Source: a virus. From it: a stretch of DNA of 64,000 nt. Shown one piece after another: positions 5,479 to 44,758 of this stretch. The stretch is from positions 8,327 to 72,326 of IMG/VR virus record IMGVR_UViG_3300042294_003292; one strand, written 5' to 3'. Below the pieces are notes generated by a model, which had not been told where the DNA came from, did not search any database, and was given only the letters and a program-made list of their open reading frames with translations. The translations under genes and the position numbers were made by a program. Within the stretch, counting starts at the first letter, position 1. Each line of letters starts with the position of its first letter.

Positions 5479-6498
5479 TTAGCAACGTGGTGGACAGCCT
5501 GTTGAGAATCTAGGGAAGAATGGGAAGAATGGGAAGAATGGTGGGAAGAATGGACCGAATCTAGGAAAAAACGGTGGGAAAAATGGTGGGAAGAAGGGAG
5601 GGAAAAACGGTGGGAAAAATGGTGGGGTAGGGGCTGGACTAGAGCATCCCCTTGTCTGAATTCTTGAAGTTGAAGAACAGTCTGATGAATATGTCGTCAT
5701 AGACCTATCCTGATAACCGCCAACACAAGAACTCCATGGCCCATAAACCGTTTCACCGCAACATCTAGAATCTGTTTCTTTGTATGTAGTGCAATCAGAT
5801 CTGGTGCATGTCCTAGTTCCAGATTGCTGTCCTCCAGAGCAATCTGACCAAGTATACGAACCGCATCCTGTTGTGCAACAAGATCTTGTTGTTGTTTCTG
5901 TAACAACACTGCAATCGCTTCTTGTACACTGCCTTGTTCCTGTTTGAGTACCGCCAGAGCAGGCTGACCAAGTATATGAACCACAATTAGCAGTGCACGT
6001 TGGGGCTGGTGCTACATAACCACATTGTGCAGAAAGGGCAACGCTTTGAGTTGTAGTAGTTGGGGAACATGCCTGAATTTGTGTAGAGCTTGAGCCATCG
6101 CTATACTGATATGTTACAGTTCTTTCTCTTGAGTATGTCTCTGTAATAATTAAAGTAGTTCCGCTACAAAACGTTGATGTTGTAAATTGTCCAGTATTAG
6201 CGCAAGACCCGTCTATTGTATTTATTAAAATTACTGATGGCTGTGGTGGGGATATATAAGATAAGAAAATGAAACTTATCTCTGTCTCATAACTTATTAA
6301 TGTTCCAGCATCTACAGATTGGGCAACAACTTTGTTGTCAAGGGCGCTATTGGTTGTTGAAGTTGTTGATGTTTCGCCAACAAATACGAGGTTTGAAGAT
6401 GCTAATGCGCTCTTAGCTTCCTCCCTGGTAAGCCCATAAAGGTCTGGCATAACAACCATACCTTTTGATGAACCAAGTTTAGATAGAAGTCCTAGCAT
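5479..6498 (-). CDS. PASTA-domain protein with TSP1-like Cys repeats and (PPFF)n tail
   Basis: MPDLYGLTREEAK..L...VVAQS PASTA pattern; WSxCxGGxQxxxRxC repeats; PPFF repeats. Confidence 0.75.
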   Translation of the reverse strand: MLGLLSKLGSSKGMVVMPDLYGLTREEAKSALASSNLVFVGETSTTSTTNSALDNKVVAQSVDAGTLISYETEISFIFLSYISPPQPSVILINTIDGSCANTGQFTTSTFCSGTTLIITETYSRERTVTYQYSDGSSSTQIQACSPTTTTQSVALSAQCGYVAPAPTCTANCGSYTWSACSGGTQTGTRQCTRSDCSVVTETTTRSCCTTGCGSYTWSDCSGGQQSGTRTCTRSDCTTYKETDSRCCGETVYGPWSSCVGGYQDRSMTTYSSDCSSTSRIQTRGCSSPAPTPPFFPPFFPPFFPPFFPPFFPRFGPFFPPFFPFFPFFPRFSTGCPPRC

Positions 6499-8070: not shown

Positions 8071-8823
8071 TTATTGGGAATCTTGCTCTGAAGTGTTTCC
8101 AATATTTGCAGTTACCGCAATATTCAAAGATCTAATGCCAGTAAGGGGCTGCCAAGAAACTACGGGTAGCGTTGTTTCTGGGTCAATTATAACAGTTGAC
8201 TCTAATGCGCTAATAAGTACTGGAAGAAATACCGTACCCTGAACTTCGTTAGCAAGAATTGGTCCAAGAGTTACAGAGCTAGATATTGGATTATTTACGA
8301 TACCGAGACCTGATGGGTTGTTTATTGGATCAAAAAGCTCTGGGTCGTTTTTTGCAAGAATACTATACTGAACGTTAAAATTAGCAGAATCTAGGATTCC
8401 TAATTCATCTATAGAGAAGAAGTCGTTCAATGGGAAAATTAGTCCTGGCAGCTTCTGCTCATTTACTGTTCTAACTGCTTGGCCATTCAAAAACTCAACG
8501 TCAATATTGGCAATTGCTGTATTTGGAATTAGCCTTAAAATTCTTTCCCAGGTTGCAACACCATTTACATTTTGGTACTGATACAAAAATAGATATTCAT
8601 TATCTGATGGCTTTAGATTAATATAGAAATCAAAAATTTGTGGTGTTGACTGTGCTGGAAGCGATGCAGAAAGAATGGTGACATTATCATCAGTTGGCTT
8701 TCCATCACCAGTAAAGATATAGGTTCCTCTTGAGCCAGGTGGGCCGAAGTCTAGAGACAGGTTTAGTTCTGATGGCCCTCCTAGAACTGACAACTGGTCA
8801 TTAGAAAATACAACATCTACCAT
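8071..8823 (-). CDS. virion structural protein
   Basis: 250 aa with FGPPGSRG collagen-like start; context. Confidence 0.6.
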   Translation of the reverse strand: MVDVVFSNDQLSVLGGPSELNLSLDFGPPGSRGTYIFTGDGKPTDDNVTILSASLPAQSTPQIFDFYINLKPSDNEYLFLYQYQNVNGVATWERILRLIPNTAIANIDVEFLNGQAVRTVNEQKLPGLIFPLNDFFSIDELGILDSANFNVQYSILAKNDPELFDPINNPSGLGIVNNPISSSVTLGPILANEVQGTVFLPVLISALESTVIIDPETTLPVVSWQPLTGIRSLNIAVTANIGNTSEQDSQ

Positions 8824-13057: not shown

Positions 13058-13239
13058 AAATCTGAATATTTTTTAAATATGTACGATACACGATCACGCT
13101 AAAAAACACCAAATTACTAGAGCGCACACCACACCCCGTACGACCCATGTTATAAAAATGTTATAAGACACTACGGCGTGTCTCCCCTAAAATGTCGTAG
13201 GGTGGTGCTAATGTATAAGTAGTTAGAAAGGATAAATAA

Positions 13240-13479
13240 ATGAACATAATGGAAATTAGAAAGAACGGAATTGGTTCTAACTTTTCTGTAATCAACCCAG
13301 AGGACGGATACCGCAAGGACAACCGCCTATGGTTCGGAACTTGTAGCGAGTGTGGTGAGAGCGTCACCAACTCAAGCCTAAAGGGTTCTTGGGTTCACTC
13401 TATTCACTCTCTAACAGAATACGCCCCTGGTAAGTTTGTGAACTCTTATCGTGATTCTGAGGTGTGTCCTAACGCATAA
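13240..13479 (+). CDS. small early protein (CxxC)
   Basis: Own promoter and GAAAGGATAAATAA RBS. Confidence 0.8.
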   Translation: MNIMEIRKNGIGSNFSVINPEDGYRKDNRLWFGTCSECGESVTNSSLKGSWVHSIHSLTEYAPGKFVNSYRDSEVCPNA

Positions 13480-13523
13480 ATGTCGTAGGGTTATGCTAGT
13501 ATCTAAATAGAAAGGATAAATAA

Positions 13524-13724
13524 ATGAGATACCAAAACAAATACTACCAGCCAGTAGATAGCCTAACACGCTACGCTAAGGTAAACCTGCTAAACCTTCA
13601 GGCAGTAGAAGAACAAATAGACTTGCTAATCTCAATTAGTGATGACCCTAGTTGGGAAACTATCAAAGAGGTAGAAGGTCTAATCAAAGTAGCAAAATCA
13701 CTTGGAACTAAGAGGAGTTGGTAA
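13524..13724 (+). CDS. small early protein
   Basis: Own promoter and GAAAGGATAAATAA RBS. Confidence 0.8.
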   Translation: MRYQNKYYQPVDSLTRYAKVNLLNLQAVEEQIDLLISISDDPSWETIKEVEGLIKVAKSLGTKRSW

Positions 13725-14037
13725 TTGTGATAACCCTAACCTTTGAAACTTGGGAAGAGTTTGATAACGCTATTGGTTCTATTGTAGCTTTGGAGACTGC
13801 TATCGCTACCCCCAGCGAATAGCAAAAGTTTTCTAAAACACGGCGTGTCGTATTGACAATGTCGCCCATCTGGGCTCGGGCCCCCCAATATCTAGTAGTC
13901 CTAATTAAGTTAAGACACTAGATCTAGATCTCCCAGAATTATAACAAAATGATAACAAGTATCACGACACACCCCTAAATGTCCCCAAAATGTCGTAGGG
14001 TCGTGATAGGTTTTTAGTAGTTAGAAAGAAGGAATAA

Positions 14038-14223
14038 ATGAGTAGAAGAATGTGGCGTAAAACTGAATGTAAAGGCTGTGGCTATGTCCAAGAAACAAGC
14101 ACTAGCTACTACCTAGACCGCAAGCAGTGGGACGCAAACCACCTGCCCTATCACTACAGCGTGTTGCCCAAGAAAATGTCTGAGGGTTATGCTAAGTTAG
14201 AACTATCAACGAAAGGAAACTAA
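14038..14223 (+). CDS. small early protein (CxxC)
   Basis: Promoter at 13990; AAGGA RBS. Confidence 0.75.
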   Translation: MSRRMWRKTECKGCGYVQETSTSYYLDRKQWDANHLPYHYSVLPKKMSEGYAKLELSTKGN

Positions 14224-14227
14224 ATAA

Positions 14228-14407
14228 ATGACTGAACAGATTTGCGTATTTTGTATGAACCTAGTCAATGACTATGTTTGTTTTGAGTGTGATGACTACA
14301 AGGGTCTAATGCCACTAAAAGAGGCAGAGGCTTACTTGGGTGAGGATTTCCCAGAGGAATACCGCCAACCAATGTCTATCTATGGACAAAACCTAATCTG
14401 GCAATAA
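14228..14407 (+). CDS. small zinc-finger-like early protein (59 aa)
   Basis: Manual translation MTEQICVFC...VCFECDDYKG; GAAAGGA RBS. Confidence 0.7.
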   Translation: MTEQICVFCMNLVNDYVCFECDDYKGLMPLKEAEAYLGEDFPEEYRQPMSIYGQNLIWQ

Positions 14408-14452
14408 TGTCAGACCCCTATGCTAGATTTGTAAAAACGAAAGGATAAATAA

Positions 14453-14623
14453 ATGGCTTACAACAGAGAATCACACGAACTACTAGACTCAGCACTAGAG
14501 GTTCTAAAGACTAAGGCTCAATACCCTTATGCCAGAATGGTTGGATACCTAATGCCTAATGTGCCACTAGAAGATGCTAAGCGTATCGCAGAACTAATCC
14601 TAGAGTGGGAGGGCGACAAGTGA
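14453..14623 (+). CDS. small early protein (56 aa)
   Basis: Manual ORF with CGAAAGGATAAATAA RBS and promoter at 14407. Confidence 0.75.
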   Translation: MAYNRESHELLDSALEVLKTKAQYPYARMVGYLMPNVPLEDAKRIAELILEWEGDK

Positions 14624-14995
14624 GTCTGTCAGTAGAAGAACTAGAAACCCTAATTTTCCAAATTGACCTAATGCTCTCAGAAGATAAAATGTCTGAAGGT
14701 GTTGGTAGTCTTTTTACAACTAGAGAGGATAACTAAATGATTTTCTATAACGGATTCAATCTAATGGTTGATTTGATTTTGGTTGCTGTTGTGTATGTAA
14801 TTGCTCACGGCATTGGATACCGCAAAGCCAAAGACTTTTTTCAGCCCCCGTTCTAACGGCGTGTCGCCTTGACAAAGTGTCAGGGTGGCGGCCGAGCCCT
14901 GGATCAGATCGGGCCCCAATTTGTTTACGAATATTTTTACGACACTCCCAGAAAATCTCCCAATAAATGTCAGAGGGTAGATGTATAATAAAGCT

Positions 14996-15160
14996 ATGAA
15001 ACTAGGAAAAGCTAATGAATCAAGACGCAAGGCGGAAAGTAAAGAACTATTCCGCAACTTACTAAAAGCTCCTCACCTAGTTTCTACACCAGAAAAATAC
15101 AAGGGAAGTCGTCAGTCTAACAATACTAAGGCTATTAGAGAAAGTAAGGCAGATGAGTAA
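14996..15160 (+). CDS. small basic early protein (54 aa, leaderless)
   Basis: TATAAT 6 nt upstream of ATG; K/R-rich. Confidence 0.65.
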   Translation: MKLGKANESRRKAESKELFRNLLKAPHLVSTPEKYKGSRQSNNTKAIRESKADE

Positions 15161-15283
15161 TTATAACTGTTGGGACTGTAATAAGCTAACTAGACACTTA
15201 TTCGAATACAGAACAATAAATGTCTGTGCCTCATGTTATGCTATTAGAGTTGGACACCCCTCAGCAAGAAAGTTGGTAAAGTA

Positions 15284-15586
15284 ATGGGAAGCTTACAAGC
15301 AAGCGAATTCGCTCAAATGGATGTTGATATTGAAACTGCCTTGGCGTGGCACTTGAAGGGTAATCACTATCCACCAATTCCTAGCTCAATGATACAACCA
15401 TGTATAGAGGCTATTGACGCTTATTGGGAAGAGGACTACAACAGACTAATCCAATTGCCAATTGATGGCGTAGACCGTAATGGAGAGCCGTTCCAAATTA
15501 GATGGCGTGATGGCTCAGACAAGGCTCCCGCTTGGGCCCTAGTTGAACACGCTCACCTTGACGCTTGGCTACCTGAAATAGAATAA
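15284..15586 (+). CDS. hypothetical early protein
   Basis: 100-aa ORF after promoter 15220. Confidence 0.75.
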   Translation: MGSLQASEFAQMDVDIETALAWHLKGNHYPPIPSSMIQPCIEAIDAYWEEDYNRLIQLPIDGVDRNGEPFQIRWRDGSDKAPAWALVEHAHLDAWLPEIE

Positions 15587-15628
15587 ATGTCAGACGTAGT
15601 CTGTATAATTATCTAAGAAAGGACCCCT

Positions 15629-16348
15629 ATGCCCCTAATACGTTCAAAAGATAGAAAGGTTACAAATGCGGTATCTCCGAATGGTAAGTCGCCCACTATT
15701 GCTAACACCTTTGGGCTTCCGTCTGGTAAAGCGTTTTCCTGCCCTGGAGCAACTAGTGTATGCGAGAAAATCTGCTATGCGGGTAAACTAGAGAAAATCT
15801 ATAAAGGCGTCAAGGACGTCCTTCTAACCAATTGGGACCTGCTACGTAATGCAGACCAATTGGAAATGGAAGCGCTATTGTTCCAAATGATAGATGAGTT
15901 TGATAAAGACTGTAACAAGCGCAATGCAGAAAAGCTGTTTCGAATTCACTGGGACGGTGACTTCTTCAATGAGACTTATACTCACGCTTGGAAGAATGTA
16001 ATCCTTGCATTCCCTTCCATTCAATTCTGGGTATACACCCGTTCAGACTTTGCGGTACCTATCCTTAGCGATGTTTCTAACTTATCACTGTACTTCTCAA
16101 CTGATGATGATAACTGGCAGCTGGCTAGTGAGTTGAAGAAAGCCAATGGCGTTAAGCTTGCATACCTTGCTCAAAATTTTGCAATGGGTAAAGAGCGGAT
16201 GTTGTCTATCACGCCTAAGTCTGCAATTCCTTGCCCTGAGAATGCGAAGAAACTTCCGCTAATCAGTGACAAGGGTTCCGCCTGCGTTACTTGCGGACAG
16301 TGTGTTTTTGCACGTAATGACATTTTGTTTAGCGCTAGTAAAAAGTAA
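15629..16348 (+). CDS. GP88-like Cys-rich phage protein (possible Fe-S enzyme)
   Basis: CPGATSVCEKICYA, FRIHWDGDF, FWVYTRS, C-terminal CP...CVTCGQC. Confidence 0.75.
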   Translation: MPLIRSKDRKVTNAVSPNGKSPTIANTFGLPSGKAFSCPGATSVCEKICYAGKLEKIYKGVKDVLLTNWDLLRNADQLEMEALLFQMIDEFDKDCNKRNAEKLFRIHWDGDFFNETYTHAWKNVILAFPSIQFWVYTRSDFAVPILSDVSNLSLYFSTDDDNWQLASELKKANGVKLAYLAQNFAMGKERMLSITPKSAIPCPENAKKLPLISDKGSACVTCGQCVFARNDILFSASKK

Positions 16349-16466
16349 GGGGATGAGGTAAAATATATCATGGACACTTTCTACATTCTATTGATTTTAT
16401 TTCTCATGGCCCTGCTACTAGTTTCTAATAATAGAAAATAGAATCATGCTATAGGGGCATGTTAAC

Positions 16467-16530
16467 CTAGGGATCTTGTTATATCCTTTCTTAGGTCCCT
16501 GGCGTCCTGGCCACGACGATAAACTGGCCA
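16467..16530 (+). ncRNA. anti-RBS hairpin A followed by pseudoknot motif
   Basis: 10-bp stem; loop UGUUAUAUCCUUUCUU complementary to AGAAAGGAUA; pseudoknot at 16503-16530. Confidence 0.65.
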
Positions 16531-16638
16531 CATTTCGGCCCGAGCCGCTTTATAACAAAATGGTAACAAGTTTACGACACGTCTCAAAAATGTCCTAGGT
16601 ATGATGTATAGTAATACTACCTAAAAAGAAAGTAGAGT

Positions 16639-17202
16639 ATGGGAACTAGAGGAATCACAGAAGTAGTTTACAATGGTGAAATTGTTGTTAGCCAGTATGG
16701 TCAATGGGACCACTACCCAAGCGGTCAGGGTATCACAGCGTTCAAGTTTCTACGCAGTCAAGAAAACATTGACAACCTAAAGAAAAATCTTGCCCTAGTC
16801 TATGTTCCAAGTGATGACGAATACAAAGCTATTGTAAGCAAGTATTCTGATGAGCGTGGAATGATGACTATGGAACAGGGTGATGAGTTCAACAAGATGT
16901 ATCCAAGTCTAACCAGAGATACTGGTGCTGGTATCCTTGAGATTATTGCTAACGCAACTGAATCAGTCCCACTATTTTTGGACCTAGAGTTCAAAGATGA
17001 CAGACTATTCTGTGAAGGTGTTTATACAATCAACTTAGATGACAACACTTTCACAACTAGATACAATCGCTACGAAAATGACAATGATGAAGATGTTTAT
17101 ACTTTATCTTTTGAGCAGATTCTTTACACGGGTGAAGATGACTATCTTGAAAGAGCAAAGTGTGGAGTCTATCAGTATCAAAAGTCTGAGGCTTTAGCCT
17201 AA
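16639..17202 (+). CDS. hypothetical early protein
   Basis: MGTRG...QYGQWDHYPSGQG; GAAAGTAG RBS. Confidence 0.8.
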   Translation: MGTRGITEVVYNGEIVVSQYGQWDHYPSGQGITAFKFLRSQENIDNLKKNLALVYVPSDDEYKAIVSKYSDERGMMTMEQGDEFNKMYPSLTRDTGAGILEIIANATESVPLFLDLEFKDDRLFCEGVYTINLDDNTFTTRYNRYENDNDEDVYTLSFEQILYTGEDDYLERAKCGVYQYQKSEALA

Positions 17203-17218
17203 CAAGATACCCTGCCAG

Positions 17219-17270
17219 CTTGACAAACTGGCGGGGATCTGCTCGGCCCCAAAACTAGGCGTTTGTCAAG
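17219..17270. repeat. 52-bp dyad-symmetric site
   Basis: CTTGACAAAC...GTTTGTCAAG perfect 10-bp arms centred on the CG of GCTCGGCC. Confidence 0.7.
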
Positions 17271-17423
17271 TTTACGATTATAACAATTTTTCCCCTGAAT
17301 TGTTATAAATAACTTGGGCGTGGCTCTTGATAATGTCGGAGGTATGCCCTATAATTTAGGAGTAGCAAAAACGACTACTAAATAGAAAAATCCTAGTGGA
17401 AAGACTAGGTGAAAGGAAGCAAA

Positions 17424-17579
17424 ATGGCAAATGTAATTGCCCCCGTTGTTGGCTCACAATACACTACTCAGAAATCAGGCGTTTCTGGGATTGTTCAGGA
17501 AGTTGTCGCAAACAAGACTGGAACTTTCCGTGTCCGTCTTGATGTAAATGGGCAGCCTCGCTGGACTACTATCAAGTAA
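17424..17579 (+). CDS. small beta-rich early protein (51 aa)
   Basis: Manual translation MANVIAPVVGSQYTTQKSGVSG...RWTTIK; GAAAGGA RBS. Confidence 0.7.
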   Translation: MANVIAPVVGSQYTTQKSGVSGIVQEVVANKTGTFRVRLDVNGQPRWTTIK

Positions 17580-17590
17580 TAAATTAGTTT

Positions 17591-17627
17591 GAGGGGGTAG
17601 AGTTATTTATCCTTTCGCTACCCCCTC
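17591..17627 (+). ncRNA. anti-RBS hairpin B
   Basis: Perfect 10-bp stem; loop contains the exact reverse complement of (C)GAAAGGATAAATAA. Confidence 0.75.
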
Positions 17628-17687
17628 TCCTAAAATGTCTGACCCTGCCCCTATAATGTAATTACCCCAAATAGAAAGTAGAAACAA

Positions 17688-18134
17688 ATGGCTAGAACCC
17701 TGTCCGTAAAAGTTCCAACAAGCAAACTAATCGCAGACATTGAGCAGTCTATCGCTAAGATTGACGCAGACATTGAGGCGTATTCTGGATTGCGTAAGAA
17801 GTATGAAGCAGACATCAAGCAGTATGAGAAAGACCTTATTGCTTATGCTGTAAAGGCACTACAAGACCCAAACAATGTTGGCACAGACCACAACTCTCTA
17901 ATTCGTGTATCAACCAACAACTACCGCAACTCTGTATCTGTTGATTTTGATACTGAGGGTCTTGGTTTCCCAAAGAAGCCAGAAGAGCCAGCAAGACCAA
18001 ATGAGAAGACCTACTTTGGTAGGGACTACACCACACGCAAGGAAATCCTAGAGAAGAACCTGCGTATTCTAAAGATGACCTCTCAAGAGGAAGTATCAGC
18101 AAGTTCTTACTCTGCTGTGATTGACCTAATCTAA
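17688..18134 (+). CDS. hypothetical early protein (coiled coil)
   Basis: 148 aa; own promoter; GAAAGTAG RBS. Confidence 0.8.
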   Translation: MARTLSVKVPTSKLIADIEQSIAKIDADIEAYSGLRKKYEADIKQYEKDLIAYAVKALQDPNNVGTDHNSLIRVSTNNYRNSVSVDFDTEGLGFPKKPEEPARPNEKTYFGRDYTTRKEILEKNLRILKMTSQEEVSASSYSAVIDLI

Positions 18135-18143
18135 TTAGGGAAA

Positions 18144-18170
18144 CGACCTGAGCAAGTCGCTAAACTGCTC
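18144..18170 (+). ncRNA. 3'-UTR H-type pseudoknot motif
   Basis: CGAC-CT-GAGCA-A-GTCG-CTAAAC-TGCTC, 9 nt after the stop codon. Confidence 0.7.
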
Positions 18171-18374
18171 TCCCCTTGGCACAAATACTGCGTGATCTGA
18201 TCACCCAAAGCTGAAGCCAGGGGGATCTTCCCGTTTTTGGCTCGGGCCGCCGTTACCAAATTGTTATTTTAAGAAGTCTAATTATTTTGCCCCAGATTCT
18301 TGACAATGTCAGAGGGTGGCTGTAAAATAGTCTCAACAAACAAATAACTAATAACCCTAATAGAAAGTAGAAAA

Positions 18375-19376
18375 ATGGCACATTTGCTAGAACAGTCCGC
18401 AACAGGCGAAACCGCTTTTGCTTCTTTTCGTGAGCCAGCTTGGCACCAGCTAGGCACAGTTTTCAATGAGGAAGTCTCAACTAACAAGATGTTGAAACTC
18501 GCACACCTTGACAACTGGAATGTTCGCTTGGAAGATGTAGCAATTCCAAATGGTTTTGAGAGTGACAAGAATTATTTCTTCGTGACTAGAACTAACCCAT
18601 TCAACAAGCAACAGAATGATGTTCTTGGCGTTGTTGGTGAAAGATACAATGTTCTTCAGAATGAAGACTTGTTTGATTTTGGTGATGCCCTGCTGGACGG
18701 CGGTCGCTGGGAGACTGCTGGTTCTATCAAGAACGGCAGACAGGTTTTCGGTTCTCTTGCTCTTGAGCGTGAAACAGTTCTTGACCCTAACGGCGTTTCA
18801 GATGTTGTGAAGTCTTATTTGCTAATCAACACTAGCCACGACGGCTCAGTTGCTATTCAGGCTTCTATCACACCTGTTCGTGTTGTATGTGCTAACACTC
18901 TAAACCTTGCTCTTGGTAAAGGCAACAGAGGTGTCAAGCAGTCTTTCAAGATTCGCCACACCCAAACCGCTTCAGGCAAAGTTGCTCAGGCTCGTGAGGC
19001 TCTTGGTCTTGCTAATAAGTATCTTGATGAGTTTGACAAGCTTGCTCAGTCTATGATTGAAAAAGAATTGACTAAGGCTCAGTTTGACAAGATTGTTGAG
19101 CTGGCTTACCCAAAGCCAGACAAAGATACCAAAGGTGCTGTCAAGAAGTGGGAAAACAAAACAGACATTCTTCAGAGTATCTATGTTGGTTCAACTAACG
19201 GAATGATTGCTGGAACTGCTTGGGGTGCTTTCAATGCTCTAACTGAGAGACTAGACTGGTATCGCACTGCTAGAGGTGGCTCTAACGAATCTATTCTAGC
19301 AGCTGCTTCTGGTTTTGACCCTGTGACTACCGCAGAAAAAAACAGACTGCTTCAGTTGGTCTTGGCTAACAGCTAA
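18375..19376 (+). CDS. DUF932 / TIGR03299-like phage-plasmid protein
   Basis: PAWHQLG, VVGERYNVLQN, ETAGSIKNGR, SHDGS, RVVCANTL, GTAWGAFNALTE. Confidence 0.9.
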   Translation: MAHLLEQSATGETAFASFREPAWHQLGTVFNEEVSTNKMLKLAHLDNWNVRLEDVAIPNGFESDKNYFFVTRTNPFNKQQNDVLGVVGERYNVLQNEDLFDFGDALLDGGRWETAGSIKNGRQVFGSLALERETVLDPNGVSDVVKSYLLINTSHDGSVAIQASITPVRVVCANTLNLALGKGNRGVKQSFKIRHTQTASGKVAQAREALGLANKYLDEFDKLAQSMIEKELTKAQFDKIVELAYPKPDKDTKGAVKKWENKTDILQSIYVGSTNGMIAGTAWGAFNALTERLDWYRTARGGSNESILAAASGFDPVTTAEKNRLLQLVLANS

Positions 19377-19382
19377 CCAAAA

Positions 19383-19408
19383 GTCCTGGGCATGACCAAA
19401 AACTGCCC
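19383..19408 (+). ncRNA. 3'-UTR H-type pseudoknot motif
   Basis: GTC-CT-GGGCA-T-GAC-CAAAAAC-TGCCC, 6 nt after the stop codon. Confidence 0.7.
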
Positions 19409-19569
19409 TCCATTCACACTTGACAAGATCGCAATTTTCGGGCCGAGCGCCTAAAGTAAAATTAGTTAATAAAAAATACCAATTACGAAGTGGTAAATAA
19501 TTTCCCAGAAATCTTGATAATGTCAGAGGCAACCACTATAATGTAACTACCCTAAAAGAAAGTAGACAA

Positions 19570-19755
19570 ATGCCCAAATACTATGTAAAGATGCGTATTG
19601 ACTTTGCTGGAGAAATTGAAGCAGAATCTAAAGAGGCAGCAGAAGACCTAGCTTGGACTAGCTGGGGTGATTCAATGGACAATGAAATAACCTATGATGG
19701 TGTTTATGACATTGACGTTGAGGAAATTGAGGATGACGAGGAAGACGAGGAATAA
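19570..19755 (+). CDS. small acidic early protein
   Basis: 61 aa, D/E-rich; GAAAGTAG RBS. Confidence 0.75.
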   Translation: MPKYYVKMRIDFAGEIEAESKEAAEDLAWTSWGDSMDNEITYDGVYDIDVEEIEDDEEDEE

Positions 19756-19785
19756 ATGTCCTACCCTAGTGTTATAGTGGATACT

Positions 19786-20151
19786 ATGAATGCCCCTGTT
19801 GAATGCCCCAATCACAATGGTTCTTTTGACTGTAATCCTTTTTGTCGTTTGTGTGAGGGAAACCAGGAAACAACTCTAGACGAAATGCTATACCAAGCAG
19901 ATTCAGTATCGTTTGATGGTTGTCACAAAATCTATCTAAACATGGACGCCAAGCAGACTGAGAAGATGGTTGGCTATGGTTATGACAAGACTATTAGTGA
20001 TACACCTGCTGCCATGAAAGACCTAGTCTTTTCTTGGTATGAAGATTCTTGTAGTCTCAGATTCATTGACGCTGTATTTACTGATGACGACGAGACTGAC
20101 AAGTTTATTACTGTTATTGGACAATTCTTTGGAGAGGACGAAGACGAATGA
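19786..20151 (+). CDS. hypothetical early protein (Cys cluster)
   Basis: CPNHNGSFDCNPFCRLC; start moved to ATG 7 nt after the -10 box. Confidence 0.7.
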   Translation: MNAPVECPNHNGSFDCNPFCRLCEGNQETTLDEMLYQADSVSFDGCHKIYLNMDAKQTEKMVGYGYDKTISDTPAAMKDLVFSWYEDSCSLRFIDAVFTDDDETDKFITVIGQFFGEDEDE

Positions 20152-21134
20152 AAGAGTGGACTCAGTTCATAAACAAGACTGACAAGAATGAGTTTGAGAC
20201 TTTGCTAGCAGACATAATGTCAGAGGCTCTTGCTAAAATAGACTCTATCCCTGATGAAGAATTAGAAAGGCTAGTTGACTGTGAGTAGTCCTATGAAAAA
20301 GTATGTAGTTACTTATACCGCTGAGTATGTGGTAGAAGCTCTTGACGAAGAAGAAGCTATTGACCAAGCGATAGAGATACACTTTGAATTACCTGACGGA
20401 AGCTGGGAGGCAACTCTTGAAAACTAATGAAGAAATCATTGAGTATCTTACTAAAGACATTCAAGAGCTAATGCCTGAGAGAGAGTCTCTTGACATCAAC
20501 GATTCCTATGGCGACTACCTTGATGGCATCATTGGTAGAAGCCAGTCTGTCCTAAGAATGATGGGTGTTCCAGAAGTTCTTATCCCGCAGAATGGAGACT
20601 GCTAATGTATAGCAAGATTTGGACTGTTGAGAAAGATGGAGAACACGTTCCGATTGTCTTTGTTACAAAGAAAGACGCTGTGGAGTGGATAGCAGAAAAA
20701 GAGAATCCAGATAAGTACACATACTACAAGGAGACAGATAAGTAATGGCTGTATCAGAGATGGAACAGATTGGCTATGAGCAGGGTATGGTTGATACCCT
20801 TGCTTATGTAGAAAGAACAATAACAAAAGCTATGGACAATCCTGCGATGGACATCTTGACACCACGACAGGTACTGGGTATACTATTGGCATCTATCAGA
20901 ATACAAGAAGAGGACGAATAAATGGCTTGGGTAACTAACGATGGTGAATACAATGGCTCTTCCCTTGTGTTGGAGTTTGACTTCAATGCCCTCAACGAAC
21001 AGCAGTGGTCTAACCTAGAGGACATGTCTTCTATGGACAGGCTTGACTATGTTGAGGCTATCCTTGCTGGAGATGACGACAAAGTTCGTCACATTGAGCT
21101 TGATAACTTTACAGAGGAGTGGGGTCTGGAGTAA
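20148..21134 (+). other. run of about 6 tightly coupled small acidic ORFs (incl. 20417-20605, 20922-21134)
   Basis: Overlapping stop/start codons and RBSs on the + strand. Confidence 0.65.
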
Positions 21135-21276
21135 TCCAGGCCTTACGGCCTCGGGCCATCTTAATATAAACTGTTTAACCCCAAAAAACCTTTACGATCC
21201 TTTGAAAAATTTTCCCAGATCTATTGACAATGTCGTAGGGTTAGTGTATAGTAATAGCTAGTAGGAAGGAAACCCA

Positions 21277-21672
21277 ATGAGACAATCTGTCATGGTAAAT
21301 AAAATTGATACTGATAAGCTAACCAAGCTGTTGTATTGGAAGGCTGTTGAGGTTGGATCTGATTCAAGACCTGAAGGTGAATCAATGGTTGTTGTCAATA
21401 CCCCAAAAGGTTTAGCTACCGTATGCCATGAAGGCGTTGGATGGTGGAAGAATGACGACAACAAGTACCTTGTAGGTGGCTACATTGGATACAGCAACCC
21501 TACGTACTACATCACAGAAGATGAATTACTATCCTGTTTGTCAGATGAGATGGTAGATCTAGCAAGTTTTATAAATACCTTTGGGGATAGGCTAGAGAAC
21601 AACTACAGCTTATGGTACCACCAGGTAAAGGACACCCCACAAAATGTCAGTGGGTTGGCGTATAATCATTAA
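21277..21672 (+). CDS. hypothetical early protein
   Basis: 131 aa after TTGACA-ATGTC promoter. Confidence 0.75.
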   Translation: MRQSVMVNKIDTDKLTKLLYWKAVEVGSDSRPEGESMVVVNTPKGLATVCHEGVGWWKNDDNKYLVGGYIGYSNPTYYITEDELLSCLSDEMVDLASFINTFGDRLENNYSLWYHQVKDTPQNVSGLAYNH

Positions 21673-22026
21673 GAAAGGAAAGTAGATGCCCCTCTATAAA
21701 ATACAACGAGAGTACACCAACTGGGAAGAGATTACAGTTGAGGCTGATTCAGAAGACCAGGCACTGGAGCTGGCTGAGGATGAAGATACATGGGAGTATG
21801 CATATGATGTTAACTCATATAATTACACAGGCGAGACATGGATTGAGGAACAGTAATGGCAAAGCACGTACACTACTATAGCTATGGCGCTTGCACCTGG
21901 TGTGGCAAGAAGGTCAACAAAGGCCTTGGCGTGGATCTATACCGTGGAAAAAAAGTTTAAGAACCCTCTTGACAAAACCCCAGAAATTTGAGACAATAGT
22001 TTTACCCTAGAGAAAGTATAACCCCA

Positions 22027-22551
22027 ATGCACGTAATACAATACATTGCAACAAAAGCAGATGACACCAGCCATGCATTCAACTCTGTCAAAAACTATCT
22101 TGAGGAACAGCTAGGTAGCGGAGACAACTACAACACTTGGTATGACTGGTTCATAACAGGCGGAGGACGTTGGGCCTCTGGAGAAGACAATCAGTATAAC
22201 GATAACTATCAGGGTGATGTAGTTCATCAGTCTGACCCTAAGTTTGAGGAATACCTAGATACCGCTCACAAATACAGGCAGCAGGAGCTATCAGAGTATG
22301 AGGCTCAGGCACGTAAGATAAATCTAACAGAACTATTAGACAGCCTTCAAGACTTTGAGTTTGACCACTTCAAGGCTGGTATGGAGCTATACCCTATTAA
22401 GAAGCTGTATGACCTATGCATGGGTGTATGGGACTATCAGTCTTACTTCTTTGACATTGATAACGATAGCACCAGCAGAAAATATATGCGTGAAAGTATT
22501 GACAAAGGAGCAGATAGCTGGTATCTTGTTCCTGTGGACTTCCATTTTTAG
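22027..22551 (+). CDS. hypothetical phage protein
   Basis: WYDWFITGGGRW motif; ends LVPVDFHF. Confidence 0.8.
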   Translation: MHVIQYIATKADDTSHAFNSVKNYLEEQLGSGDNYNTWYDWFITGGGRWASGEDNQYNDNYQGDVVHQSDPKFEEYLDTAHKYRQQELSEYEAQARKINLTELLDSLQDFEFDHFKAGMELYPIKKLYDLCMGVWDYQSYFFDIDNDSTSRKYMRESIDKGADSWYLVPVDFHF

Positions 22552-22563
22552 AAAGTAGGAGCA

Positions 22564-22980
22564 ATGGAAATGACAAAAGTAGAACCGCAGTACACAGAGT
22601 ATCAGGGCTGGAATGAGTGGGCTGATAAGTACAAGCCAATCAAAAACCATCTTGTTTCTGACCCAGACCAGCAGATGTTTGAGACCTATGGCGAAGAGCT
22701 GGAGTATGTTCAGTCTGTTGAGCCTAACCGTATCTGGACCTACCTACAGGGAGACATGTCTGACCTTATTTGCGCAGGCTATCACTTTGTAAACAGGATT
22801 GGTTACTACATCACTGAGGTACCTTGGACCAACGAAGATGACTATGTCCTTCTATCAGTAGAAGAAGAGTGTAAGTGTTACAGCGAAGACGAAGATGTCA
22901 TGGCAACCCGCAACGATGAGTATGGGGACCCAAGCTGTGTAGAGTGCGAAGGGTATGGATATGTCACAAACTATGTATAG
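22564..22980 (+). CDS. hypothetical protein with C-terminal zinc-finger
   Basis: GYHFVNRIGYYITE; CKC...CVECEG; GAAAGTAGGA RBS. Confidence 0.8.
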   Translation: MEMTKVEPQYTEYQGWNEWADKYKPIKNHLVSDPDQQMFETYGEELEYVQSVEPNRIWTYLQGDMSDLICAGYHFVNRIGYYITEVPWTNEDDYVLLSVEEECKCYSEDEDVMATRNDEYGDPSCVECEGYGYVTNYV

Positions 22981-23323
22981 AAACAAGAACAGAAACAAGA
23001 CTCTTATTGACTATGACCTTAACATCTACATGCCTGAAGAGTACGACGACATATCAGATGAGTACTACTTTGACCCAAGTAACTGGAAGATTCATGTCTA
23101 CATTGTTAACGACCGTGGCCACGAGGAATGGGATGAGCCGTTGCATCTGACAGCTGAAGAGATTAGGCACCTAGGCCTAAACAGGGAATCGTACTTCAAA
23201 GACGAACAAGACGTCTGGTACGGCCTGGAGGGATTTAGGTTAGACTATTGGGATAGGATGTCCGATAGGCTGAAGGAATATTTCGATCGCCTGCCTAAGT
23301 ACGTAGAGGACGTAGGTCCATAA
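22973..23323 (+). CDS. hypothetical acidic protein
   Basis: ORF overlapping the upstream stop. Confidence 0.7.
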   Translation: MYRNKNRNKTLIDYDLNIYMPEEYDDISDEYYFDPSNWKIHVYIVNDRGHEEWDEPLHLTAEEIRHLGLNRESYFKDEQDVWYGLEGFRLDYWDRMSDRLKEYFDRLPKYVEDVGP

Positions 23324-23335
23324 TTAAATAAGGAT

Positions 23336-23441
23336 TGATGCGTTGAGCTGAGCTCCGCATCATGTGAGATACGACAGTTAGGGGTAGCTAGCGTATCTCA
23401 AGGGGTGTCAAGACTTTTCCTACTTTCAGTCTTGACACCCC
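23336..23441 (+). ncRNA. three-hairpin RNA ending in anti-RBS hairpin C
   Basis: Stems of 7, 9 and 14 bp; last loop UUUCCUACUUUC is antisense to GAAAGUAGGAAA. Confidence 0.65.
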
Positions 23442-23487
23442 CACCAATTTGTGGGATAATACACATAGGAGAATAACCAGATTGAGA

Positions 23488-23676
23488 ATGAGTGATGAGG
23501 AAAAGGTCGCAGTAAAAATCACTGGACTTCTCTCTGACCATAGGCTAAACTTAGATAGGGTTGGCTTGTATGTGGCAAGAGAAGAACCAAGTAGCAATTA
23601 CAGACGACTGATGATTGTGGCGGAAGCCGCTGATGAAGAATGGGAGAGTAGGTATGGCAGACACGACAGAGTATAG
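23488..23676 (+). CDS. hypothetical protein
   Basis: After TTGACA-N17-GATAAT promoter. Confidence 0.65.
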   Translation: MSDEEKVAVKITGLLSDHRLNLDRVGLYVAREEPSSNYRRLMIVAEAADEEWESRYGRHDRV

Positions 23677-23935
23677 AACACAGATAGAAGTCCTAGCAGA
23701 ACTTTGGATGGACTATCGTGATGACGAAGCATTTGCCGAATTGTTTGAGTATGCTGATTTGGGCTTTCCCCTTTCCTATGCTCTGGACAACGGAGTTGTG
23801 GATTCAACTGTTCACGCAGAGAAACTTATCGAAAGCACATTTGATTTGCTACTCAAACTTCTTGCCGTTGAGGACACAGGGTTTGAGAGCCTGAACGATT
23901 TGCTTGACACAGCTGAGCAGAAGAATCAAAAGTAA
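23654..23935 (+). CDS. hypothetical protein, paralog of 29433-29708
   Basis: EVLAELWMDYR...DLGFPLSY...VEDTGFESL. Confidence 0.75.
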   Translation: MADTTEYRTQIEVLAELWMDYRDDEAFAELFEYADLGFPLSYALDNGVVDSTVHAEKLIESTFDLLLKLLAVEDTGFESLNDLLDTAEQKNQK

Positions 23936-24190
23936 TCTAGTCTAACTTCCTGATCCTGGTTATCAGGGGGGTAGGCCCGAGTACCTTTATCAAAATGTTA
24001 TAAAACCACTATTGACAAACCTTATTACGATGGTATATAATATTTCCCTGAAATTTGATCGATGCCTATCCAAACCTCAAACCTTATTTAAATAAACATA
24101 TTACGATCAGATCAAAAAAATCGCTGAAATATTTGGCTATAAGGGTTTGGGTATTTTTAGAAGTCTTACCAAACATGATATACTTTATAC

Positions 24191-42086: not shown

Positions 42087-43919
42087 TTATGATCCGTTCC
42101 TTATGTTTATTGTAGTTGCAATTCCACTTATAGAGATTGCAGACAGTGCTGCCTGGACTGCAACAATTGCTGTAACCACTACCTTCTCCGAAGTTTCTCT
42201 AACTTGCGGACTCATGTCTGCTCCAGCATTACCCAAAAAGTTTACAAGCTCTACAGCCCCCTCAAGGGCATCTCCTAGGAGAGGCACAGCTGCAAGGGAC
42301 TCGTCTAATACAATGTCATCTTGCTGAGCTGCAACCATTAAGGCTTCTAGGGCCTGCTCATATTCTTCAGAACCCTGCTCTGCTGTCTCAAAGACCGCTA
42401 GGGCTGCCTCAACTAGCGCTTCTGCTTGTTCAGCAGTCAGCTCTGTTGGCACGATCTCTTCCAAGTTTACCGACATAAGCTCTTCTGGCGAAATGTCTAC
42501 TGGTAAATCTTCGGCAGATGTGATAGACTCTTCTTCAGAAGGAGATGGTTCAGGTGAAGGTTCAGGATCAACTGGCTCAGGAGATGGCTCAGGCAAAGGC
42601 CCTGGTTCAACAGGCTCTGGAGAGGGCTCTACAGGTTCTGTGGTTGGCTCTTCTGGTTGCACTGGTTCCACTGGCTCTGGTGTGGTCGTTTCTTCTGGCA
42701 CTGGTTCCAGGGACGGTTCTGGCTCTGGGACTACTGGTATGGTTGGCGGTACGACAGGTTCAACGGGCGGTACGACAGGAAGAACTGGGGTAGGTTCAGG
42801 CGTTGGCTCAGGAGTAGGAGCTGGAGTAACTGGAATATCCTCGTAAACTACAAGAAGAATAAGAACTTTTGGGGTTCCAGGTGCTGGATCGTTTCCAAAT
42901 ACAATATTTGATACCTCAACTGTTGCAGAGGTTGATCCGCCAATTAGGTCAAATAAAATTGATGAAACGTCTTGGCCACGAGTTCCGTCATCAGGGTCTC
43001 CGTAATATCCCGAAACGCTTGCAACTCTTTGTCCTTGTGGGGCAACTACTGAAAAGCTAGAGTTTTCCTGAACTACTGTGGCACCTTCTGGAACAACTGG
43101 AGCACTTACAGATGGGGTAGGAGTTGGTGTTGGAGACTCTGTGGGCGTAGGAGTTGGTTCTGGGGATACTGTAGGGGATTCTGTGGGTGTTGGAGTTGGC
43201 TCTGGGGATACTGTAGGGGATTCTGTGGGTGTTGGAGTTGGCTCTGGAACAAAGGGCGATTCAGTAGTTGGCTCTGGTGCTAGCTCTGGAGTCTCTTCTG
43301 TTTCCTGAATTCCATATGTTTCAAAGTCTACAACAGTTCCATCGTTTAGACGCACACCAGTTCTTGGATTATTCTGTGGATATTCTGGGCCACTTAAAGT
43401 GTAAGCCATGGCTACCGTACCGTCTGAAAGAATGGCAGCTGTAATGACGATATTAGTTGGCTCTGGCGTATTTTGTAGCCAGATAGGTCTGGCAGAAATA
43501 TCTACCTGGAACCCTCCATCAGAAGATCTAATGATTAAGTGCTCATCGCTTCTCCATTGTGGGTATACCACCCAGTCAAAAGAGTATAGTGAAATCGAAG
43601 GTGTGCTTGGGTAGGTCCAATAAGTACCGTCTGGCCTGCCAAAGGTGATTACTGAATTTGTTGTGGCATAGATGCTGTTATAGCTTACTCCATCAAATGT
43701 AACATTGACGGACAGTGGGACCTGATAAGAGACATCGTCTCCACCACAGGTGTTGATTTCTACAACCACTGGCTCAGATGAAGAGGCCTGTTGTGCAGCT
43801 GCTACAGCAGCTACCTGACCTGGGTTTACGCAATTTGCATTTGCAATATCGGATATGCCAAACACTGGAAAGAATGCCAGGGTAAGGGCAGCGATAATTC
43901 TTCCTACTTTATTTTTAAT
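42087..43919 (-). CDS. secreted/anchored Pro-Thr-Glu-rich surface protein (probable ATT start)
   Basis: Signal peptide complete only from ATT 43919; [14 protein letters not shown] repeats; C-terminal hydrophobic anchor. Confidence 0.75.
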
Positions 43920-44727: not shown

Positions 44728-44731
44728 ATGA

Positions 44732-44758
44732 GGGCAGTTTTATATCTTGCCCAGGATA
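44732..44758 (-). ncRNA. 3'-UTR pseudoknot between katG and tRNA-Thr
   Basis: TATC-CT-GGGCA-A-GATA-TAAAAC-TGCCC. Confidence 0.7.

Follow-up and report, generated by a model that had tools for sequence, protein, structure and literature searches.

The window analyzed here is the whole stretch of 64,000 nucleotides (nt) spanning positions 8,327 to 72,326 of virus record IMGVR_UViG_3300042294_003292, a 72-kb IMG/VR record with an estimated completeness of 64%. The element under study is an RNA module of about 86 nt (16445-16530) that consists, in order, of a small hairpin (hp1), a larger hairpin (hairpin A) and an H-type pseudoknot. It lies in the spacer 3′ of a GP88-family gene, the first gene of the unit whose 3′ untranslated region (UTR) carries the module, and begins 3 nt past the stop codon of a tiny open reading frame (ORF). 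The gene of 187 amino acids (aa) on the 3′ side of the spacer was assigned to no known family. A further hairpin, hairpin B, is found 3′ of a 51-aa gene (17424-17579) and directly 5′ of a promoter-like site. The features of the locus are as follows.

15629-16348, + strand: GP88-family gene, 239 aa (PF17338, E-value 7.8e-51; phrog_1392, unknown function).
16349-16638, + strand: spacer carrying the module, within a + strand block of small early genes.
16370-16441, + strand: tiny hydrophobic ORF of 23 codons (translation MDTFYILLILFLMALLLVSNNRK), with its stop 3 nt before hp1.
16445-16461, + strand: hp1, CAUGCU-AUAGG-GGCAUG, with a G-rich loop (-6.4 kcal/mol, z -2.95).
16467-16502, + strand: hairpin A, a 10-base-pair (bp) stem with the 16-nt loop UGUUAUAUCCUUUCUU at 16477-16492.
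16503-16530, + strand: pseudoknot copy 1, H-type (49.7 bits), starting at the base after hairpin A.
17591-17627, + strand: hairpin B, a 10-bp G-rich stem with the loop AGUUAUUUAUCCUUUCG.

The 5′ arm of hairpin A (16467-16476, CUAGGGAUCU) pairs with the 3′ arm at 16493-16502 (AGGUCCCUGG). Folded as the + strand, the hairpin reached -13.8 kcal/mol (z -3.18), which was equalled by none of 200 shuffled sequences, while the - strand gave -7.6 kcal/mol (z -0.92), equalled by 34 of 200. The energies differ because two G-U pairs, U16468-G16501 and U16474-G16495, become A-C on the opposite strand. The RNA strand is the + strand, as the first-pass annotation of this DNA had proposed from these G-U pairs. 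A gathering-threshold scan of the whole window against Rfam 15 returned the five transfer RNA (tRNA) genes only, and with E-values up to 10 the hairpins and the knot were unmatched in 16300-17750 and 17700-19600, the models for C4, 6C, preQ1-I and small ribozymes included.

Within the hairpin A loop, TATCCTTTCT (16482-16491) is the exact reverse complement of AGAAAGGATA, so that the 10-nt match claimed for this loop is genuine. With both strands counted, AGAAAGGATA has three exact copies in the window (13225 and 13509 on the + strand, 16482 on the - strand); each of the two + strand copies is followed at a distance of 5 nt by an ATG (13240 and 13524) and is therefore a ribosome-binding site. 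Allowing one mismatch gave 17 matches against 7.6 expected, a number reached in 0 of 100 shuffles. The heptamer TCCTTTC occurs three times on the + strand of the whole window, twice as the loops of the 10-bp hairpins A and B. Hairpin B, whose existence had likewise been claimed, is real, and its loop holds UUAUUUAUCCUUUCG on a G-rich stem unrelated to that of hairpin A.

Relatives were collected by searching IMG/VR with the two proteins flanking the spacer, which yielded 37 and 80 loci (numbered with the prefix L). The module was recognizable 3′ of GP88 homologues from uncultured lake phages whose proteins are 68-95% identical to the GP88 protein of the window. Pseudoknot-adjacent hairpins with a CCUUUC loop numbered 29, with 23 distinct stems, 18 G-U pairs among 204 stem bp and an invariant CCUUUCU core. 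Inner stem positions were paired in 6.9 of 7 cases between a hairpin's own arms and in 3.0 of 7 when arms were re-paired between hairpins, full pairing being seen in 25 of 506 such chimeras. These counts were made with a custom script because MAFFT, given 15 hairpin A sequences, anchored the loop but left the arms unaligned. The arms can even change places around the same loop (GGGAUCU...AGGUCCC in the window, GGUCCCC...GGGGAUC in L044 and L128). Of the 88 distinct sense-strand TCCTTTC sites in the loci, 50 were in loops of hairpins with stems of at least 7 bp, compared with 6-16% for control words (GAAAGGA, 32/289; CTTTCCT, 6/37; AGGAAAG, 7/114). Homologues of hairpin B have covarying G-rich stems and the same loop, each directly 5′ of a promoter-like site. 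An invariant loop core on 23 different stems means that selection acts on the hairpin A loop, which the first-pass annotation had argued from two stems.

The conserved core, UCCUUUCU(U), is the complement of the consensus Shine-Dalgarno region of the phage family. The most frequent 8-mers within 17 nt 5′ of 1516 distinct start codons were overlapping shifts of AAAGAAAGGAA, the complement of the loop, with AGAAAGGA eighth among them at 52 occurrences. The best sense-strand matches of the loops were all 4-8 nt 5′ of an ATG. Long matches were found for L015 and L125 (16 nt), L138 (13 nt), L122 (12 of 12) and hairpin B (15 nt of its loop, to the ribosome site at 14438-14452); lengths of this order were attained by 0-1 of 200 shuffled loops (0 of 200 for hairpin B), and the extra bases of the longer loops follow the leaders of the messenger RNAs (mRNAs). 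The module thus exposes in a loop a sequence complementary to the ribosome-binding region, the match of hairpin A taken alone being no longer than those of shuffled loops.

The same core could instead mimic the 3′ end of 16S ribosomal RNA (rRNA), or a pyrimidine-rich protein site, and bind or titrate a protein recognizing that sequence, for instance an initiation factor, a nuclease or a protein of the ribosome. The invariant UCCUUUCU equals what we take to be the last 8 nt of actinobacterial 16S rRNA, and a core kept in both hairpin families, whatever the sequence of the stem, would suit a recognition site equally well. The loop extensions, however, track mRNA leaders and not rRNA (UAU before CC; UAACUAACU after CC in L125 and L138; UUAUUUAU in hairpin B) and give ribosome-site matches of 13-16 nt, hp1 adds complementarity to the adjacent CCCC spacer, and no candidate protein was identified, the neighboring genes being of no known function. 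We consider this explanation unlikely.

Promoter-like repeats (families D1, D4, D7 and D8) extend over 13185-21253 and fall into two families that share AATGTC(R)NAGGG in the spacer; one has TTGACA or TTGATA at -35, and the other, class 1 (13185-14740), lacks this -35 element and has a short, fixed leader with the ribosome site AGAAAGGAUAAAUAAAUG fused to it. The ribosome sites that bear on the loops are as follows.

13225-13234, + strand: class-1 ribosome site AGAAAGGAUA, preceding the ATG at 13240 (repeat family D1).
13509-13518, + strand: class-1 ribosome site, second copy of AGAAAGGAUA, preceding the ATG at 13524.
14438-14447, + strand: class-1 ribosome site, third copy (CGAAAGGAUA), preceding the ATG at 14453.
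15604-15609, + strand: -10 hexamer TATAAT of the GP88 promoter, by consensus only.
15615-15631, + strand: GP88 start region AAGAAAGGACCCCUAUG, with the AUG at 15629, the predicted target of both loops.

The first-pass annotation described the hairpin A loop as directed against class 1. Complementarity to class 1 exists: UAUCCUUUCU in the loop is complementary to AGAAAGGAUA at 13225 and 13509, and for hairpin A alone these two sites gave the best pairing (-13.1 kcal/mol). The restriction to class 1 has to be dropped, as the loop complements the family-wide Shine-Dalgarno consensus and the best predicted target, once hp1 is added, is the GP88 start region. There, UCCUUUCUU (16484-16492, hairpin A loop) is complementary to AAGAAAGGA (15615-15623), and AUAGGGG of hp1 (16451-16457) is complementary to CCCCUAU (15624-15630), so that the two loops jointly match 16 contiguous nt, 15615-15630, from the Shine-Dalgarno sequence through the AU of the GP88 start codon. 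Each start region of a locus was scored as a target by adding up the energies of its duplexes with the two loops. The GP88 start region of the window ranked first of 14 (-23.8 kcal/mol), and the GP88 site was top-ranked among 12-22 start regions in 10 of the 11 lineages with a module 3′ of GP88. Judged from the consensus -10 alone, the GP88 mRNA would start at about 15615-17, and the target would therefore probably be the extreme 5′ end of a short-leader mRNA. For hairpins behind other genes, the best partners were early ribosome sites 2-4 kb upstream. The CCCC word to which the hp1 loop is matched, placed between the ribosome site and the ATG, was unusually frequent, being present in 100 of 1522 start regions (GGGG, 30; TTTT, 35), with examples in the window at 15624-15627 and upstream of 22027.

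Several results weigh against an antisense role for the loops. In the window, 46 of 200 shuffled loops reached the 10-nt match of hairpin A, and the real loops of L131, L124, L141, L059 and L079 did no better than shuffles, because pyrimidine loops easily find partners on a purine-rich sense strand. With shuffled loops, GP88 still ranked first in 5-20 of 100 trials; lineage L041 ranks GP88 fourth of 19; and the 11 lineages are related and represent perhaps five or six independent groups, with summed duplex energy being a crude score. The proposal that each hairpin targets its own upstream gene held for GP88-linked modules only and not for 9 other hairpins (among which L122 was read on the wrong strand and L131 was without upstream sequence). 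Covariation of AUCC or UUCC loops with GGAU or GGAA sites was mixed, since L141 combines an AUCC loop with mostly GGAA sites. Ribosome sites were not enriched in hairpin loops (32 of 289, against 6-16% for controls); a classical loop-loop design is not supported at the target side, and the 9-bp stem around 13509 is therefore not claimed as a feature. Finally, no RNA run with the window sequence was found.

The pseudoknot starts at 16503, the base that follows hairpin A, exactly where it had been placed. Hairpin A fused to a knot was previously taken as a unit of about 65 nt; the fusion stands, and with hp1 the unit becomes about 86 nt. In copy 1, the first stem (S1) is formed by CGUC (16503-16506) and GACG (16515-16518) and the second stem (S2) by UGGCCA (16508-16513) and UGGCCA (16525-16530); the first loop (L1) is C, the junction is C and the last loop (L3) is AUAAAC. 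Three further copies are present in the window.

19382-19409, + strand: pseudoknot copy 2, S1 GUC/GAC and S2 GGGCA/UGCCC (42.6 bits), 5 nt past the stop of a DUF932 gene.
18144-18171, + strand: pseudoknot copy 3, S1 CGAC/GUCG and S2 UGAGCA/UGCUC, 9 nt past the stop of a 148-aa ORF.
44731-44758, - strand: pseudoknot copy 4, S1 UAUC/GAUA and S2 GGGCA/UGCCC, 5 nt past the stop of a 717-aa ORF and 3 nt before tRNA-Thr.

In 100 sources, a covariance model in which S2 alone was paired, and to which S1 was unknown, returned 94 matches at an E-value of at most 1, with 92 on the gene strand; in 25 further sources it returned 26 more at an E-value of at most 0.1. In an alignment of 57 knots (49 distinct), 94.9% of cells were paired and changes on both sides were seen in 8 of 10 pairs, including S1; on four measures of covariation, the observed values were reached by 0 of 500 shuffles. 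A structural descriptor found 227 distinct knots in about 1 Mb, with C as the first loop in 225, and in the first 40 loci it found 123 knots in the real sequence and none in shuffles. In an independent set, among the matches listed, all three free pairs of S1 were present in 111 of 132 distinct sites, compared with 8.9% after re-pairing, with 54 different S1 sequences. The element is an H-type RNA pseudoknot with compensatory changes in both stems.

These data also bear on whether the feature acts as DNA, that is, as an inverted repeat for protein binding, recombination or replication. Conserved gene-boundary sequences could serve module exchange, and GGCC(C)GAG and GATC words occur in the same spacers in both orientations. 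Such a function is very improbable in view of the G-U pairs, which the complementary strand would show as A-C and which are seen in the window and at 18 of the 204 stem pairs, the location of 210 of the 227 knots on the gene strand, the stems that change yet keep pairing, and the single-stranded L1 C and AAAC of the knot, which would be meaningless in duplex DNA.

Knots of exactly the type at 16503-16530 were found in 23 IMG/VR stretches, and the commonest S2 variant was found in at least 120. Eighteen cluster M mycobacteriophage records contain the knot; the Mycobacterium phage PegLeg has a single one (L143, 1508-1533; 44.8 bits) between the gp104 stop and tRNA-Arg. Other cultured carriers are Labelle (Mycobacterium), Molivia (Arthrobacter), S-RIM4 (Synechococcus), NMeng1 (Nostoc) and ParMal1 (Paracoccus), with the knot at about 398-430 of L270-L274. 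In cultured phages the knot occupies an unannotated gap after a coding gene and in three of them directly precedes a tRNA gene; tRNA-Gly is within 3 nt of the Molivia knot, and the NMeng1 knot precedes a tRNA-like gene. At E-values up to 10, Rfam 15 left the knot unmatched in five cultured-phage loci. Streptomyces phage BillNye gave no convincing knot (best E-value 0.19). In bacterial genomes the knot pattern had 4 sites, all high in G+C, without the AAAC loop and with no tRNA nearby, and these were taken as chance.

The position of the knot follows a rule. For the 220 knots with a nearby ORF end, the distance from stop codon to knot was 0-12 nt in 120, 13-40 nt in 55, 41-100 nt in 40 and 101-150 nt in 4, and 1 overlapped the ORF. 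No knot was closer than 4 nt to the stop; 37 were at 5 nt and 28 at 6 nt. The independent set had the same spacing limit, with 25 at 5 nt among the matches listed. In the cultured phages Labelle, Molivia, S-RIM4, NMeng1 and ParMal1, the knot was 6 nt past the annotated stop in 4 of 5. A tRNA follows the knot at 3-12 nt in PegLeg, Molivia, NMeng1 and the window; among the matches listed, the same holds for 12 of 181 additional copies. The knot of the hairpin A module is 61 nt from the stop codon.

Such spacing raises the question of whether the knot acts on the terminating ribosome, by slow termination, read-through or a scanning block, or as a tRNA-like processing signal for RNase P, with hairpin A as an accessory, and is more than a passive 3′ cap. 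A sharp lower limit of 4-5 nt with a mode of 5-6 nt, seen in two independent sets and echoed by the 6-nt spacing in the cultured phages, would put the knot at the mRNA entrance of a decoding ribosome, by comparison with what is generally held for frameshift signals. The placement before tRNAs also speaks for such a role, and the available text of PMC12710915 describes a small pseudoknot as an RNase P substrate if RCCA follows. For comparison with a stacked helix of about 12 bp followed by RCCA, S1 and S2 of the knot add up to 10 bp. Against such a role, the three bases after S2 often begin with CC (CCN in 73 of 227) but are rarely CCA (24 of 227). The spacing of recoding signals, with a knot 5-9 nt past the site, agrees with the 5-6 nt mode but not with the 61 nt of the module knot, and the genes upstream of the knots are mutually unrelated. 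The limit is also one-sided with a long tail (55 of 227 at 13-40 nt, 40 of 227 at 41-100 nt), and steric exclusion plus compaction therefore fits better than a fixed working distance. We regard a role in termination or RNase P cleavage as quite unlikely to be the explanation.

Accessory hairpins are the exception. At the 227 knots, which come from the lineage of the window, both hairpins were present in 16 cases, only the CCUUUC-loop hairpin in 15, only hp1 in 22 and neither in 174; GGGG-loop hairpins on varied stems thus stand upstream of 38 of 227 knots. In the wider knot set, among the matches listed, a CCUUUC-loop hairpin was present at 1 of 131 knots and a GGGG-loop hairpin at 3 of 131, and hairpin A is therefore lineage-specific; it was found in no cultured phage. 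In the distant relatives L054 (4660-4691), L074 (4637-4668) and L079 (5775-5806), the stem of the hairpin complementary to ribosome sites is GUAGGG(G)/CCCCUAC, and its G-rich word is the one that forms the hp1 loop elsewhere.

A knot that serves as a general 3′-boundary element, mostly without such hairpins (174 of 227 with neither), would also agree with hairpins A and B being purely structural, as terminators without a U tract or as exonuclease barriers whose loop is kept for resistance to cleavage or for Rho loading. The hairpins are always 3′ of stop codons and 5′ of the next promoter-like site, and hairpin B has a long G-C stem. Against this, no + strand terminator-like site was called within 16445-16550, and hairpin A has a 16-nt loop and no U tract on its 3′ side, where the next sequence is CGUCCUGG. 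A structural role would further leave unexplained both the 7-8 nt loop core that is invariant across 23 stems and its exact complementarity to the commonest ribosome-site word. We judge it improbable.

The reading that we favor, and to which we give an even chance, is that the module is a 3′-UTR antisense element directed against early translation start sites and held by a general 3′-boundary pseudoknot. Hairpin A is the central component of a conserved, modular RNA element located in the 3′ UTR of the transcript of GP88 and the tiny ORF. The stems would only hold the loops out, with the information carried by the loops, which are antisense to the ribosome-binding region of the short-leader early mRNAs of the phage; in the case of GP88, the hairpin A loop would cover the Shine-Dalgarno sequence, and hp1 would cover the CCCC spacer together with the AU of the AUG. 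Pairing may occur by loop contacts within one mRNA, from its 3′ end to its 5′ end, or between molecules once a stable 3′ piece has outlived the rest of the message. It would block binding of the 30S subunit and lower early translation, with GP88 as the best target. The knot would delimit a translated gene on its 3′ side, lying as near to the stop as the footprint of the terminating ribosome permits, and would sometimes remain as the 3′ end once a tRNA further downstream has been excised. Its most likely function is to protect the 3′ end of the RNA and so to stabilize the module. In one lineage, the region between stop codon and knot would have gained one or two hairpins that present loops. The structures with their covariation and conservation, the strand, the complementarity and the spacing rules are observed; the stable RNA piece, the pairing, the repression and the function of the knot are proposed.

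A bolder form of this reading is possible but doubtful. It holds that the knot is an undescribed RNA class, carried by phages of at least three bacterial phyla, that engages the terminating ribosome or RNase P at the stop codon and so sets the 3′ end of the message, and that the two added hairpins in one lake-phage lineage form a two-part antisense switch silencing the start site at the 5′ end of their own mRNA.

The closest parallels in working are the C4 RNA of phages P1 and P7 and the loop-seed small RNAs of Gram-positive bacteria, actinobacteria included; the module belongs to neither, as it matches no model and is laid out differently. C4 RNA is cut from a transcript and has no promoter of its own; through two exposed loops it pairs with two neighboring sites across the ribosome-binding region of a gene in its own transcription unit and switches translation of that gene off. 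The module resembles it in phage origin, in having two loops and in the same-unit target. C4 differs from the module in being located 5′ of its target and freed by RNase P, in having no pseudoknot and in belonging to enterobacterial phages, and its Rfam model did not match the module at E-values up to 10. In 6C/B11, RsaE/RoxS and RNAIII, a hairpin loop presents a C/U-rich seed that complements the ribosome site and acts independently of Hfq. Their loops are C-rich (CCCC/UCCC), their genes are chromosomal and they have their own promoter and terminator, whereas the module has the loop UCCUUUCU, is a 3′-UTR element, ends in a pseudoknot and is unmatched in Rfam. CpxQ, SroC and similar RNAs are regulatory pieces that share the 3′ end of a coding transcript; they end in an intrinsic terminator hairpin, in place of which the module has a pseudoknot, with neither a U tract nor a terminator-like site.

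The knot itself has the architecture of the frameshift knots of luteoviruses (beet western yellows virus type): an S1 of 4-5 bp, a one-base C loop, a single junction base and an A-rich last loop, located 5-6 nt downstream of the decoded codon. It differs in following a stop codon and not a slippery heptamer, in its 6-bp S2, and in its occurrence in DNA phages after many unrelated genes; no second reading frame was evident, with no search made for slippery sites or conserved extensions. The preQ1-I riboswitch is also a small H-type pseudoknot with an A-rich tail, but it is found in 5′ leaders, where it hides the ribosome site, and its longer loops form the ligand pocket; cmscan gave no preQ1-I match at E-values up to 10 on four knot-holding stretches. 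Repetitive extragenic palindromic elements and the RNase III sites of T7 early mRNA are repeated intercistronic structures that define and protect 3′ ends. These are plain hairpins, in contrast to the phage pseudoknot, whose unpaired positions include invariant bases and which is never closer to the stop codon than a strict minimum. Full-text literature searches returned no description of the module or the knot. The available text of PMC7953290 describes the cluster M repeats CR1-CR4, which are distinct from the knot, and the knot may already figure, unnamed, among the 8495 candidate RNAs that the available text of PMC10690425 reports from a large IMG/VR screen.

As to the phage, a DnaE-type polymerase encoded in the window has its best cultured relatives among Streptomyces phages at 55% identity (Ankus, 55.5%; BillNye, 55.2%), and we infer an actinobacterial host. 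Near-identical DNA was present in lake and freshwater metagenome runs, and 11 other studies contained at least half of the sampled words. The tiny ORF at 16370-16441, between the GP88 gene and the RNA module, has its own GAGG ribosome site; L040 and L049-L052 have comparable small hydrophobic ORFs that use different codons, and the relatives L041, L044, L047, L048, L053 and L075 lack the ORF.

The G+C-rich word GGCC(C)GAG has 8 copies in the window, all within 13875-23981 and 4 in each orientation, frequently close to GATC and 5′ of the promoter-like site that follows; a looser pattern gave 4 matches in the other 53 kb. The mixed orientation suggests a DNA site. An A+T-rich stretch of 46 nt (TTATAACAAAATGRTAACAAGT...ACGACAC) is found at 13939-13984 and 16550-16595, 83% identical and before a promoter each time, and TTTACGA-like words also recur 5′ of promoters in relatives. 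Short tandem repeats with periods of 12 nt and 42 nt occupy 5505-5626 and 43098-43253 within - strand coding regions, which look like glycine-rich repeat proteins.

The knot is of wider interest as a short structure with strong covariation, no Rfam 15 match and a ribosome-sized distance rule to stop codons, and its function is directly testable because cultured phages carry it. If the loops pair with start regions, early protein synthesis in these phages would be timed or limited by RNA in the tail of the same messages, an arrangement that is undescribed for phages in the searchable literature and that would need neither a protein repressor nor a separate small-RNA gene.

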